DNA of 64,000 bases, taken from NCBI RefSeq assembly GCF_054482595.1, contig NZ_CM137008.1. One strand, given 5' to 3'. The notes beneath the pieces were generated by a model. The model had not been told where the DNA came from. It did no database searches and saw only the letters and a program-made list of their open reading frames with translations. Shown one piece after another: positions 51,455 through 60,539 of this stretch (positions are counted from its first letter, which is position 1; every line of letters begins with the position of its first letter). The translations under genes were made by a program, and so were the position numbers.

Positions 51455-53149
51455 TTATGCCTCAACGCATGATTGTTCCAGCCGTTGAACAATATCTTTC
51501 CGTAACAAAAACTTTTGTATTTTACCTGAGGCAGTACGCGGTAGTTTTTCGATTACCACGATATGTTCAGGATATTTATATTTTGCGACCCGTTTACGGC
51601 TAAAAAAAGCCACCACCTCTTCCAGCGATAATGAATGATGCGGTGCTTTCAGCACGACATAAGCGCATGAACGTTCACCTAAGCGTTCATCGGGCATTGC
51701 AACCACACAAGCATCGTGAATTTTAGGATGCTGTAATAAAATATCTTCCACTTCACGGCTGCTAATATTTTCGCCGCCGCGGACAATAATATCTTTCTTG
51801 CGCCCGGTTATTTTTATATAGCCAGCCTCATCCATGCGGCAGAGATCGCCGCTGTAATACCAGCCTTCTTCATCCATGGCACGGGCGGTTAATTCAGGTT
51901 CATCAAAATACCCCATAAACACATTGGGGCCACGCGAGGCTTCTTCACCTTCGCAACCTGGCGGTAAGGTCTTGCGTGCGTCATCGACCACTTTAATCTC
52001 TACACCTGCGGCAGCGTAACCATCGGTGTGCATAAAGCGCGACAAAGGATCATCGAGATTCACCACCGCATGCGGCGAACTTTCTGTGGAACCATAAACA
52101 CTTAATAATTTAATGCCGCGCTGCTGGCATTCACGCGCCACTTTTTTGGGGATTGTGGTACCGCCGCAAAGAAAGAAGCGCAGCGCTGAAAGGTCTGCGG
52201 GTTGTTTCTCTAGTAAATTCAAAAGATCATAGACAAACGGCGTTGCGCCGAGCATACAGGTGCAACGCTGCTGCTCAAGCAGCGCGAGACACGCATCAGG
52301 AGTGAAAATATCTAACAACACGCTGCGAGCGCCAATTAAGAATGGTGCCGTTACGCCATGCAGAAAGCCCGTTGCGTGGCCGAGTGGCGCAGGCATCATA
52401 AAGACATCCTGCCAGGTCAGATTCAGCCGCGCGCAATAAGCCCGCTCACTGGCGAGAATATTGTTATGCGTTAGCATCACGCCCTTTGGCAGACCCTCGG
52501 TTCCGGAGGTAAACAGCACCGCAGCTAATTCATCGCCGTGGGTCGTTATCGCCGTGGTCAGTGGGGTATTGTCGGCGATAATCTGACTTAATGAGAGGGA
52601 AGAGGTGGCGGGAGCCAGTTTGTCCACGCCGACAATTTGTTGTAGTTGTGGAAGCTGATTTTGCAGCGGCAGGATTAAATCTACCGGACGCGTTTGTTTA
52701 AACAACGTCGGTGCAAAGAACATTTTTGCCTGACACTTATTGAGCACCCACACCAGTTCTGCTTCCCGCCAGGAAGGCAACAGCGGCACGGAAACCGCAC
52801 CGATTTTCAGGCAGGCAAGATAGATAACGGTAAATTCACACCAGCCTGGCAGTTGAAATGCGATGCGATCGCCTGATTCAATACCCTTCGCTAACATCCA
52901 GTTTGCCAGACAGCTCGCGGCGTGATCGAGCGCGCTATAGGTGTACGATGCTCCATGATTATCGACCACGGCAATTTTGTCTGGCATCGCACGAGCGGTC
53001 TGCTGCCAGTAATCGGCCAGCGAAGCATCGCCCCATAGCCCTTGCTGACGATACGCCGCACGACGTTGTTCGTTAAACGTTAATGTCACTTTCATTTTGG
53101 ACTCTCGAAACAGAACATCAGGCCCGAGATGCGGGCCTGTGGGATGCAT
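51455..53149 (-). CDS. fadK: short-chain acyl-CoA synthetase
   Basis: 564-aa ORF, AMP-binding family; true start may be the internal MKVTLTF. Confidence 0.9.
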   Translation of the reverse strand: MHPTGPHLGPDVLFRESKMKVTLTFNEQRRAAYRQQGLWGDASLADYWQQTARAMPDKIAVVDNHGASYTYSALDHAASCLANWMLAKGIESGDRIAFQLPGWCEFTVIYLACLKIGAVSVPLLPSWREAELVWVLNKCQAKMFFAPTLFKQTRPVDLILPLQNQLPQLQQIVGVDKLAPATSSLSLSQIIADNTPLTTAITTHGDELAAVLFTSGTEGLPKGVMLTHNNILASERAYCARLNLTWQDVFMMPAPLGHATGFLHGVTAPFLIGARSVLLDIFTPDACLALLEQQRCTCMLGATPFVYDLLNLLEKQPADLSALRFFLCGGTTIPKKVARECQQRGIKLLSVYGSTESSPHAVVNLDDPLSRFMHTDGYAAAGVEIKVVDDARKTLPPGCEGEEASRGPNVFMGYFDEPELTARAMDEEGWYYSGDLCRMDEAGYIKITGRKKDIIVRGGENISSREVEDILLQHPKIHDACVVAMPDERLGERSCAYVVLKAPHHSLSLEEVVAFFSRKRVAKYKYPEHIVVIEKLPRTASGKIQKFLLRKDIVQRLEQSCVEA

Positions 53150-53151
53150 GA

Positions 53152-53445
53152 TTAGCCGTAGCGAAAATCAATACCGAAGGTGCCTGCGGGATATTGCCAC
53201 TGTTCGAGAATAGTGTTACCGCACAGCACCCGACAGGTGCCGCACTCCAGACAACCGGCAGAATCAAAATGAATGTTGCCGGCGTCATCCTGCTTATAAA
53301 GTCCGGCAGGGCAGGCTTTCATTAATTTTTGAAATTCTTTGATGTCGGGATTTGCCGCCAGAATAATATGTGGATGGCCCTCATCAACATGGAATTTATT
53401 GACGCCTAATTTGACATCAACGTTAACCGTAGCGTTCTGGCTCAT
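53152..53445 (-). CDS. ydiT: ferredoxin-like protein (FixX-like)
   Basis: 97-aa ORF with Cys cluster. Confidence 0.9.
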   Translation of the reverse strand: MSQNATVNVDVKLGVNKFHVDEGHPHIILAANPDIKEFQKLMKACPAGLYKQDDAGNIHFDSAGCLECGTCRVLCGNTILEQWQYPAGTFGIDFRYG

Positions 53446-58930: not shown

Positions 58931-58943
58931 CATTATACTCCTG

Positions 58944-60539
58944 TTAATGAGCCGCTTCAGGCAGGACAAAACCCATCGCCGCATCGATAAATAATCTTTC
59001 GTCCATCAGTTTGAGTTCTGGCGAAATCACTGGGGTGAAATCCATTTTGTCGAGAATATCTTTTTGTAAATCGACGCCAGGGGCGATTTCGATTAAATGC
59101 AGGCCGTCTTCTTTCAGCGTGAATACTGCGCGCTCAGTGATATAACGAACATCCAGCCCTCGCTCGAGAGCGATTTTTCCGCTGAAAGTAATTTCCGGTA
59201 GTTCCCGAATAAATTTCTTCACCCGTCCTTCCTGGACGATATTTAATTTGCCGTCGGTAATTTCTGTTTTTAAACTGCCCGCAGTTAACGTGCCGCAGAA
59301 AATAATTTTCTTCGAGGTGGCACTGATATCAATAAATCCACCGGTACCCATGATTTTGCCATTGAATTTATGCACGCCGACGTTACCGTGCTGGTCGACT
59401 TCAGCAAAACTCAAATAACAAACATCCAGACCGCCACCGTGATAAAAATCAAACTGGGACGTCATATCCAGAATGGCACGGGTATTCACGTTCGCGCCAA
59501 AGGCGATCCCCTGTGAAGTAATTCCGCCAATCGGACCTGTTTCTACCGTCAGAATAAAGTCATCAGCACAACCTTCTTCTCGGGCGACCAGGCCAATGCC
59601 GTCAGCAATACCGACGCCGACATTCCCCACCGCGCCTTTACGCATTTCGAATAATGCGCGCCGCGCAACTAATTTACGTTGGTTTAGGGGCAGGCTAAGT
59701 TTGGTACTGTCATCAAGGGTGAAGTCACCAGAAATAAAGCGGTTAACCGGTGCACCGCCATACAGTTGGGTTTGATCCGGATCGACCACCACAATATCCA
59801 CCAGATAACCCGGAATACGGACAGATTTAGGATGCAGCGTGGCTTTCTTAACCATTTTCTGCACCTGCATCATCACAATACCGCCGTTATTGTGCACCGC
59901 CTGGGCAATAACCAATGCGTCGAGATACATCACCTCATCTTCAAAAGTGGCGTAGCCTTCGCTGTCGCAGGTGGTAGCGCGAATGAAGGCGATATCTGGC
60001 GCAATCCCTTTGTAATAGAGATATTCTTTGTTATCAAACTCGACCAGTTTAATCAGGTCTTCTTTAGTGACTTCATTCAGTTTGCCGCCTTGCTGGCGTG
60101 GATCGACAAATGTCCCGATGCCAATATCACTAATAATACCAGGCTGGTGGGCTGCGGCGGCGCGTAAGGTTTGTGTAAGTACACCTTGTGGGTAGTTATA
60201 AGCAATAATTTTATTTTGTTCTGCGAGTTCAGAAATACGCGGCGATTGTCCCCAGTGACCACATAATGCCCATTTCACCAGACCTTCTTGCGCCAGAGGA
60301 CTAATACCACGATCGGCGCGATCGCCAAGCCCTGTTGGACTAATAATCGATAAATTACGTGGCGTTTGAGTCTGTTTATATTTATCAGCAAGAGCAGTAA
60401 TTAACGTGGTGGCTTCCAGAATACCGCCGCCAGCGCCTAACACACAAAGTGTTGCTTCGTCGGGAATATAATTCACCGCTTCCTGTGCCGACAGGACCGG
60501 CACTCGTCCATTAATACGAGGTGGTTTTACAGGTTTCAT
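58944..60539 (-). CDS. ydiF: acetate/acyl CoA-transferase (fused alpha/beta)
   Basis: 531-aa ORF. Confidence 0.9.
   Translation of the reverse strand: MKPVKPPRINGRVPVLSAQEAVNYIPDEATLCVLGAGGGILEATTLITALADKYKQTQTPRNLSIISPTGLGDRADRGISPLAQEGLVKWALCGHWGQSPRISELAEQNKIIAYNYPQGVLTQTLRAAAAHQPGIISDIGIGTFVDPRQQGGKLNEVTKEDLIKLVEFDNKEYLYYKGIAPDIAFIRATTCDSEGYATFEDEVMYLDALVIAQAVHNNGGIVMMQVQKMVKKATLHPKSVRIPGYLVDIVVVDPDQTQLYGGAPVNRFISGDFTLDDSTKLSLPLNQRKLVARRALFEMRKGAVGNVGVGIADGIGLVAREEGCADDFILTVETGPIGGITSQGIAFGANVNTRAILDMTSQFDFYHGGGLDVCYLSFAEVDQHGNVGVHKFNGKIMGTGGFIDISATSKKIIFCGTLTAGSLKTEITDGKLNIVQEGRVKKFIRELPEITFSGKIALERGLDVRYITERAVFTLKEDGLHLIEIAPGVDLQKDILDKMDFTPVISPELKLMDERLFIDAAMGFVLPEAAH

Follow-up and report, generated by a model that had tools for sequence, protein, structure and literature searches.

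The accessory operon between ppsA and fadK in Escherichia carries its own hairpin and a variant 3′ end of fadK

The analysis of the window (the whole stretch of 64,000 nucleotides examined, from contig NZ_CM137008.1) shows that positions 51455 to 60539 hold an ordinary, intact fadK–ydiTSRQ/ydiP/ydiO–ydiF cluster of the K-12 type, already known from textbook E. coli. These are the genes named in an earlier, sequence-only reading of the locus, with ydiP as a divergent AraC-type regulator, and that assignment is borne out by PGAP annotation, NCBIfam, Pfam and the gene order of K-12. Over 25,001 bases there are only 2 differences between the window and E. coli XH990 (NZ_CP019359), and the gene coordinates given here are those of the PGAP annotation of XH990, with the annotation of K-12 set alongside. 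On the minus strand lie fadK (ydiD; 51455..53095), encoding a medium/short-chain acyl-CoA synthetase of 546 amino acids (NF004758, 1083 bits, cut-off 736); ydiT (53152..53445), for a ferredoxin-like paralogue of FixX (NF011993, 147 bits, and annotation); ydiS (53442..54731), for an FAD-dependent oxidoreductase of the ETF-QO/FixC type (NF007450, 976 bits, cut-off 466); ydiR (54787..55725) and ydiQ (55745..56509), for the alpha (NF008884, 688 bits, cut-off 528) and beta (NF008998, 498 bits, cut-off 338, and annotation) subunits of an electron-transfer flavoprotein. The AraC-family regulator gene ydiP (56825..57736, plus strand; AraC/cupin, PF12833, PF02311 and PF07883) diverges from ydiQ. It is followed, again on the minus strand, by ydiO (57779..58930), for an acyl-CoA dehydrogenase (PF00441, PF02770, PF02771), and ydiF (58944..60539), for a fused alpha/beta acyl-CoA:acetate/3-ketoacid CoA-transferase (PF01144 and annotation).

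FadK, YdiS, YdiR and YdiQ all score above the curated NCBIfam equivalog or subfamily cut-offs. YdiT falls below the cut-off of 166 bits for the FixX model, as expected for a paralogue of FixX. The FadK family model begins at residue 19 of the long open reading frame 51455–53149 (564 amino acids), and therefore the start of fadK is most likely at 53095. The order and orientation of the cluster genes are identical in the PGAP annotations of XH990 and K-12. The cluster is collinear with that of K-12, with 97–100% nucleotide identity per 300-base block over most of its length; one block in ydiT (about 53185–53484) is 94.7% identical. According to PMC3896788, which refers to Campbell et al. 2003 and to Morgan-Kiss & Cronan 2004, fadK of K-12 encodes an acyl-CoA synthetase of anaerobic beta-oxidation accompanied by an ETF/ferredoxin set. 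The anaerobic expression of the cluster, and its role in fatty-acid activation and electron transfer, are taken from that source.

On the other side of the locus lies ppsA (44895..47273, plus strand), encoding phosphoenolpyruvate synthase (NCBIfam NF005057, 1317 bits, and the XH990 PGAP annotation), with its coding region intact. It is followed by its terminator hairpin (47281..47305, plus strand), which folds with –20.1 kcal/mol (z = –4.3) and is recognized in the alignments with K-12. In K-12 this one hairpin serves both ppsA and fadK; here it stays on the ppsA side. The gene and the hairpin are retained with 2–3 SNPs relative to K-12, and the left junction of the accessory DNA is the 3′ edge of the hairpin (about 47304–47306).

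Between ppsA and fadK stands an operon of four genes, all on the plus strand, preceded by a non-coding leader (47306..47762). The first gene (47763..49163) encodes an anion permease of the DASS family (TIGR00785, 449 bits; PF00939, 527 bits). The second (49199..50158) encodes a D-2-hydroxyacid dehydrogenase (PF02826/PF00389), for which the best NCBIfam matches lie under the equivalog cut-offs. The third (50169..50648) encodes a YhcH/YjgK/YiaL (DUF386) protein (TIGR00022, 129 bits; PF04074), and the fourth (50661..51404) an SDR-family oxidoreductase, recognized by profile searches and blastn. The leader shows blastn homology to the cassette of Citrobacter and Salmonella weakly from about 47437 and strongly from 47700; from 47306 to about 47436 it was found in Escherichia contexts only. 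It holds a hairpin with a 9-bp stem (47722–47743), and searches of Pfam and Rfam with the leader gave no match. We considered whether the 457-bp leader might derive from a regulator gene or from a second copy of the fadK 3′ end that has decayed, and rejected this when a resemblance seen by eye failed in tests: for a fadK relic, tblastn returned nothing meaningful and local alignment did not exceed shuffled sequences (p = 0.87) or control windows. Signs of site-specific integration are lacking: there is no tRNA gene, and none of the four cassette proteins has an integrase or other mobility domain. The junctions have no repeat of 8 nt or longer, direct or inverted, as for a target-site duplication or terminal inverted repeats. 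The hallmarks of an integrative mobile element or genomic island were thus looked for and not found.

The sequence-only reading held that the operon was inserted within, or replaced, the original ppsA–fadK spacer, leaving both flanking coding regions undisturbed, and suggested alignment with K-12 as the check. The alignment places the operon between ppsA and fadK, as proposed, but puts the right junction at about 51490/51491, within fadK rather than in the spacer. Near-identity with K-12 (about 97%) returns only from 51491, 36 nt into fadK. The accessory allele (about 47305/6 to 51490, about 4185 bp) replaces 66 bp of K-12, comprising 24 bp of spacer and the last 42 bp of fadK; the 24 nt that separate the hairpin from the fadK stop codon in K-12 are missing in the window. 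The claim that both coding regions were undisturbed is therefore correct for ppsA but fails for fadK, since the operon brings with it its own hairpin and a variant of the last 11 fadK codons.

The variant 3′ end of fadK (51455..51490, minus strand; 11 codons and the stop codon) was defined by alignments with K-12 and other Escherichia. The last 13 codons of K-12 fadK are replaced by 11 different ones, so that the protein ends in DIMRRLTQDVCEEIE in K-12 and in DIVQRLEQSCVEA in the window. The match to the FadK profile runs from position 1 to 544 of 548 in the window; in K-12 it ends at 547 of 548. The A10 motif PRTASGKIQK is intact, and this is therefore an allelic variant of the tail rather than loss of the gene. 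With the reading frame intact and the A10 motif untouched, FadK should still be functional. The operon-type and K-12-type tails align codon for codon across Escherichia lineages, with the pattern I-x-Q/R-R-L-x-Q/K-x-C-x-E, and they are more similar than expected for random peptides (p about 0.001) or for shuffles that keep composition (0.04). The operon-type tail is farther from every operon-free tail than the operon-free tails are from one another. It may have come from a more distant lineage that has not been sampled, or have changed rapidly following the insertion. The NCBIfam FadK profile was dropped as a means of judging which tail is nearer to the family consensus, as the difference of 3.5 bits is uninformative. 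In a protein-database search with FadK the best 120 matches were all E. coli variants. PpsR is identical in E. whittamii, and an exact look-up gave E. coli contigs only.

The operon closely abuts fadK. A distance of about 50 bp had been noted from the sequence, and the gap is exactly 50 bp, the SDR stop codon ending at 51404 and that of fadK occupying 51455–51457. A bidirectional hairpin common to the operon and fadK had also been proposed, and there is indeed a hairpin between them (51414..51445) with the character of an intrinsic terminator on both strands, though it is not the original one of K-12. It folds with –17.8 and –16.9 kcal/mol on the two strands (z = –3.7 and –5.8), and none of 200 shuffled sequences folds as well. 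The stem of 13–14 bp lies 9 nt from each stop codon, with an A-tract before it and a U-tract after it, as would be expected of a bidirectional terminator. The tracts read UUUAUUAUUUAU on the plus strand and UUUAUUCAAU on the minus strand, where the tract lies partly within the lower stem. The stem is AT-rich at its base and has about five G–C pairs, and the hairpin is absent from the list of a simple consensus terminator scan. Four of its 13 pairs are kept by compensatory double changes in Escherichia sp. MOD1-EC7003 (in a comparison of four sequences, with all the changes in that one lineage). The hairpin is absent from K-12 and from the cassettes of Citrobacter and Salmonella, and is part of the operon-bearing haplotype. 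Transcription of fadK would now end at this new hairpin, which would also end that of the converging cassette operon.

How widespread is the operon-bearing allele? Of 5426 complete E. coli genomes, 114 (about 2%) carry the segment, each covering at least 80% of the query at a single chromosomal place. The segment is always single-copy and at this site, its junctions are identical throughout, and no partial forms were seen. Of the carriers, 33 are XH990-like. Carriers include the phylogroup F strains IAI39, whose junctions are the same as those of the window, and SMS-3-5. The arrangement in E. whittamii and Escherichia sp. MOD1-EC7003 is collinear with this one and shares its junctions. Every carrier that was examined has both the variant tail and the hairpin. 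In a genome scan the only close relatives of the cassette were in representatives of two other Escherichia species. A four-gene core of about 75% nucleotide identity occurs at other loci: in Citrobacter it lies at a GNAT|tam junction, in Salmonella between tolB-pal-cpoB and bigA/nadA. This homology stops at the SDR stop codon, and the hairpin and tail are not included. Klebsiella, Kosakonia and C. koseri were rejected as donors, since nothing but a lone SDR homologue, at unrelated loci, occurs in them. A search of the literature on the ppsA–fadK junction found nothing specific.

The left flank of the window differs by 2.1% from that of IAI39, 4.7% from MOD1-EC7003 and 6.7% from E. whittamii. 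The corresponding distances for the insert are 3.6, 7.4 and 4.9%, so that E. whittamii and MOD1-EC7003 change places and the phylogeny of the insert conflicts with that of the flanks. Within E. coli the insert is more divergent than the flanks. This conflict, together with the identical junctions, shows that the segment has been exchanged between lineages. It has probably spread by homologous recombination in ppsA and fadK. The left flank of the window is 99.4% identical to K-12, and an insert-free strain, TB06051, is 99.5% identical over the flanks. The SNPs that only the window has are concentrated near the junctions, within about 0.55 kb on the left and 0.4 kb on the right, yet they bound the ends of a recombination tract poorly, and the insert-free comparator too has private SNPs in the same 3′ stretch of ppsA. 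What happened in this strain resembles the replacement of one allele by another through homologous recombination more than a new insertion into the spacer.

That the K-12 spacer was cleanly interrupted or replaced by the operon in this lineage, with both coding regions untouched, has become unlikely. It would fit the mere SNPs in ppsA and its hairpin, the full-length open reading frame of fadK and the 50-bp gap between stop codons, but not a return of near-identity only 36 nt inside fadK, the exchange of 13 codons for 11 or the loss of 24 nt of spacer; moreover the same junctions in other Escherichia species place the event outside this lineage. If the cassette had instead entered the 3′ end of fadK, the 11-codon tail would be a fortuitous C-terminus read from cassette DNA. 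The position of the junction relative to K-12 within the reading frame, and a tail shorter by two residues, are what this would produce. We regard it as very improbable, since the tail aligns codon by codon with the fadK tails of all the Escherichia lineages (p about 0.001) and the homology to the cassettes of Citrobacter and Salmonella does not extend beyond the SDR stop codon to the hairpin and tail.

The polarity of the change could also be the reverse, with the operon ancestral at ppsA|fadK and the short spacer of K-12 a derived deletion that spread to about 98% of E. coli. The operon's presence at this site in phylogroup F (IAI39 and SMS-3-5) and in two Escherichia species other than E. 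coli would agree with this, as would insert alleles that are 3.6–7.4% apart, a divergence so deep that the segment must be old. However, a deletion would not create the 66 bp of K-12-specific sequence with its homologous 13-codon tail. Furthermore, three divergent operon-free lineages, with 87–92% nucleotide identity to K-12 fadK, have ppsA at 53–56 bp from fadK, a single shared hairpin and K-12-like tails of 13 residues. These were found on metagenome contigs by a degenerate DNA pattern, and are called Escherichia from 99.3–99.5% PpsA identity alone. As all of them have the short spacer of the K-12 type, insertion is the likely polarity, rather than deletion elsewhere; the occurrence of the cassette core at unrelated loci in Citrobacter and Salmonella, and the restriction of its close relatives in the genome scan to two other Escherichia species, point the same way. 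We consider an ancestral operon unlikely, to the same degree as a clean insertion in this lineage.

The whole is best accounted for by a presence/absence polymorphism of long standing at the ppsA|fadK junction of the genus Escherichia, in which the operon allele was spread by recombination in the flanks; we would give this a probability of about 0.78. The operon-bearing allele consists of the leader, the four-gene cassette, the dedicated bidirectional hairpin and the diverged, yet homologous, last 11 codons of fadK. Most likely it arose when the cassette entered, a single time, the short ppsA–fadK spacer of an Escherichia lineage; crossovers in ppsA and fadK would later have brought it into the otherwise K-12-like background of this strain. 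The tail and hairpin would stay linked to the cassette since recombination is hindered by their nearness to the heterology and by their divergence.

The stakes are small, as this is a textbook cluster beside a routine strain-variable islet, and the useful product is a corrected map of the junctions. Because the accessory allele extends 36 nt into fadK and supplies a putative terminator, a pangenome tool in which fadK counts as unchanged ‘core’ will miss its allelic C-terminus. The locus provides a clean and small example of an accessory cassette moving among Escherichia species, probably by flanking homologous recombination. It could act as a marker of phylogroup F and of lineages, and is a natural test case for the evolution of bidirectional terminators. 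A bolder proposal is that the two alleles are a long-lived polymorphism upheld across Escherichia species, in which cassette, co-evolved terminator and alternative FadK C-terminus pass on as one unit, and that the exchange of tail and terminator measurably alters fadK–ydiQRST expression or FadK activity. We think this quite improbable; were it true, the gain of an accessory operon would rewire a neighbouring core operon.

How does the locus compare with known systems? Genes, order and orientation are shared with the K-12 locus, from which the window differs in a FadK of 546 rather than 548 amino acids, with another C-terminal tail and another terminator hairpin past the gene; fadK faces ppsA in K-12, and the SDR gene in the window. 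The keto-aldonate modules of E. coli of the yiaK-S type contain a transporter, a dehydrogenase and a YiaL/DUF386 protein. The cassette, with its combination of transporter, 2-hydroxyacid/ketoacid reductase, DUF386 protein and SDR, presumably resembles such a module, although the transporter is of the TRAP type there and DASS in the cassette, and the cassette matches no equivalog model. The hairpin at 51414–51445 is like the bidirectional Rho-independent terminators between convergent genes in its folding on both strands, in its covariation and perhaps in its A- and U-tracts; it differs in being AT-rich at the base of the stem and in being missed by the consensus scan. Strain-specific islets at core-gene junctions of E. 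coli are gained and lost via homologous recombination in the flanking core genes. The ppsA|fadK segment shares with them the lack of integrase, tRNA gene and junction repeats, the identical junctions, the conflict between trees and a patchy distribution (2%) across species. Unlike these islets, the allele in the window adds a replaced gene terminus and a structurally conserved putative terminator of its own, and thus the two alleles differ not only in the spacer but also within a core gene.

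The segment that separates ppsA from fadK in the window replaces K-12 sequence that extends into fadK itself. In K-12 a spacer of 56 bp, carrying a single hairpin, separates the stop codons of the two genes. On the left side of the segment, identity to K-12 continues from ppsA (44895-47273, plus strand, upstream of the four-gene cassette) through its stop codon and the whole of this hairpin with 2-3 SNPs, and ends at 47304/47305. On the right, near-identity (~97%) is regained only from 51491, 36 nt inside fadK. Thus, where the window has 47305/6-51490 (~4185 bp), K-12 has 66 bp, made up of 24 bp of spacer and the last 42 bp of fadK. 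The sequence-only reading had an insertion that lay within the ppsA-fadK spacer, or replaced it, and disturbed neither coding region. The position is borne out, with the left break in the spacer, and the fadK reading frame is intact, but the right break lies within the gene and its 3′ end has been replaced, so for fadK the claim was wrong.

The C-terminus of FadK is ...KDIVQRLEQSCVEA in the window (546 aa) and ...KDIMRRLTQDVCEEIE in K-12 (548 aa). The A10 motif PRT(A/T)SGKIQK just upstream is untouched, and the FadK equivalog model scores the two proteins alike (1083 bits for the window, 1087 bits for K-12). The operon-type tail, (V/L/I)QRL(E/V)(Q/K)(S/T)CVE(A/V), can be aligned with operon-free fadK tails at every codon except two that it lacks, and the similarity exceeds chance (p ~0.001 against random peptides, 0.04 against shuffles that keep composition). 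This makes it a fadK tail that has diverged, rather than cassette DNA that happens to be read. At the other end of the gene, the start at 53095 is backed by the family model and RefSeq, while the longest ORF (51455-53149, 564 aa), the form used by some database entries, begins 18 codons further upstream.

The stop codon of the last cassette gene ends at 51404 and that of fadK starts at 51455, leaving a gap of 50 bp. Here a hairpin at 51414-51445 is predicted to form on both strands (-17.8 and -16.9 kcal/mol); not one of 200 shuffled sequences reached such stability. With AAUAAA to its one side and UUUAUU to its other, the predicted hairpin has the symmetry expected of a bidirectional terminator. 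The observation that the operon ends ~50 bp from fadK with a bidirectional hairpin was therefore correct. This hairpin is not the original one, since the K-12 hairpin remains with ppsA and that on the fadK side is a different one. A consensus structure from four sequences (the window, IAI39, E. whittamii and MOD1-EC7003) has 13 pairs, one of which is A·C on the fadK-sense strand and G·U on the opposite strand. Four pairs are kept by two-sided changes in MOD1-EC7003, which points to selection acting on the structure, although with all the changes in one lineage of the four this is a single evolutionary observation to which no statistic is attached.

How widespread is the operon-type allele? It is present in 114 of 5426 complete E. 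coli genomes, in each as one chromosomal copy at the ppsA-fadK site, and there are no partial forms among these carriers. The carriers form two classes: 33 match the window at an identity of 99% or more and 81 at ~96.3%, the latter including the phylogroup F strains IAI39 and SMS-3-5. In E. whittamii and Escherichia sp. MOD1-EC7003 ppsA, the operon and fadK are collinear, with junctions and tail type as in the window. Of 57 loci picked up in metagenomes by the FadK A10 motif, 2 have the operon-type arrangement. The region has no match at all in six of the 5426 genomes. The cassette is interrupted by IS2 in DSM 103246, and fadK by IS1 in strains 22919 and 14EC033. In the metagenome contig OBUY01000380.1 the fadK tail, the hairpin and ppsA are normal, but what lies upstream of the A10 motif is unrelated to fadK (~42% identity); the contig may carry a truncated fadK or be chimeric.

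Three operon-free metagenome lineages have fadK 92, 89 and 87% identical to K-12, PpsA 99.3-99.5% identical, and ppsA 53-56 bp from fadK with one shared hairpin. Thus the operon-free short spacer is likely to be the ancestral state, and the insertion polarity of the earlier interpretation is probably right; together with position this is what survives of it, neither an untouched fadK nor an original hairpin being borne out. The 13-residue K-12-like FadK tails of these lineages (IMWRLTQDVCEVIE, IIQRLTEGHCGITE and IIRRLTQDYCESTE) are varied, and the fadK tail is therefore hypervariable.

Nothing in the segment points to site-specific integration: the four cassette proteins lack integrase and transposase domains, and the search found no tRNA, no junction repeats of at least 8 nt and no Rfam match. 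The tree of the insert is at odds with that of the flanks: distances from the window are 2.1% (IAI39), 4.7% (MOD1-EC7003) and 6.7% (E. whittamii) for the left flank, and 3.6, 7.4 and 4.9%, respectively, for the insert, which within E. coli is more divergent than its flanks. This conflict is compatible with lineages having exchanged the entire allele. The left flank is 99.4% identical to K-12, and the insert-free strain TB06051 is 99.5% identical to the window flanks. SNPs private to the window lie within ~0.55 kb of the left junction (46734, 46772, 47033 and 47042) and ~0.4 kb of the right (51536, 51877, perhaps 51502 and 51644), a pattern suggesting that the insert brought short pieces of both flanking genes with it. 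TB06051 also carries SNPs of its own there, which leaves the ends of the recombination tract only roughly bounded. We envisage a single old insertion of the cassette in an Escherichia lineage, after which homologous recombination in the two flanking genes would have spread the allele, with the fadK tail and the hairpin hitch-hiking because they adjoin the heterology.

The cassette encodes a DASS anion permease (47763-49163), a D-2-hydroxyacid dehydrogenase (49199-50158), a DUF386/YhcH protein (50169-50648) and an SDR oxidoreductase (50661-51404), all on the plus strand and assigned by family and domain scans. There is no regulator gene among them, and the proteins met no equivalog model. The combination of DASS transporter, 2-hydroxyacid/ketoacid reductase, YiaL-like DUF386 protein and SDR recalls keto-aldonate modules such as yiaK-S. 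The four-gene core occurs in other genera at ~75% nucleotide identity, flanked by a GNAT acetyltransferase gene and by tam in Citrobacter youngae and Citrobacter sp. C348, and by tolB-pal-cpoB and bigA/nadA, with a transposase fragment alongside, in Salmonella enterica. Homology to these copies is weak from ~47437 and strong from 47700, and stops with the last codon of the SDR gene, so that it takes in neither the 51414-51445 hairpin nor the fadK tail. Thus the cassette can move from one locus to another, whereas the hairpin and tail are part of its setting in Escherichia.

The Salmonella fragment is a small ORF (HTH_Tnp_1; 8829-9014 of loci L036/L037) directly 3′ of the cassette, and is the sole mobility-related trace beside any copy seen. 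In Citrobacter GCA_047467975.1 an internal deletion equivalent to window 48210-49911 joins a truncated permease to a truncated dehydrogenase (6794-7481 of locus L034), so here the cassette is decaying. Citrobacter koseri, Klebsiella species and Kosakonia (L038-L042) have only a lone SDR homologue (75-82% amino acid identity), between cysS and folD in Klebsiella and Kosakonia. A further hairpin with a 9-bp stem (47722-47743; TTCCCTCC ACGAGC GGAGGGAA), ~20 nt upstream of the permease start, lies within the block whose homology extends to Citrobacter and Salmonella, and may act as a leader attenuator or as a minus-strand terminator.

Beyond the segment, the gene identities of the sequence-only reading agree with our family scans and with the PGAP annotation of E. 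coli XH990 (NZ_CP019359), which differs from the window at 2 of 25,001 bases (37000-62000). On the minus strand are fadK (51455-53095), ydiT (53152-53445), ydiS (53442-54731), ydiR (54787-55725), ydiQ (55745-56509), ydiO (57779-58930) and ydiF (58944-60539), with the AraC-family gene ydiP (56825-57736) on the plus strand, divergent from ydiQ. FadK/YdiD and YdiO have a role in anaerobic fatty-acid degradation (PMC3896788). Short patches of sharply higher divergence occur in ydiT (53260-53493, ~8% from both K-12 and IAI39) and ydiS (53562-53667); the former is also present in TB06051, and the latter is unlike that strain. Such patches suggest a local mosaic produced by recombination, independently of the insert. 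The finding is that of a known cluster beside a strain-variable islet, real and ordinary. The K-12 cluster has the same gene order and orientation as that of the window, and the two are 97-100% identical per 300-base block over most of their length, falling to 94.7% in one ydiT block (~53185-53484).
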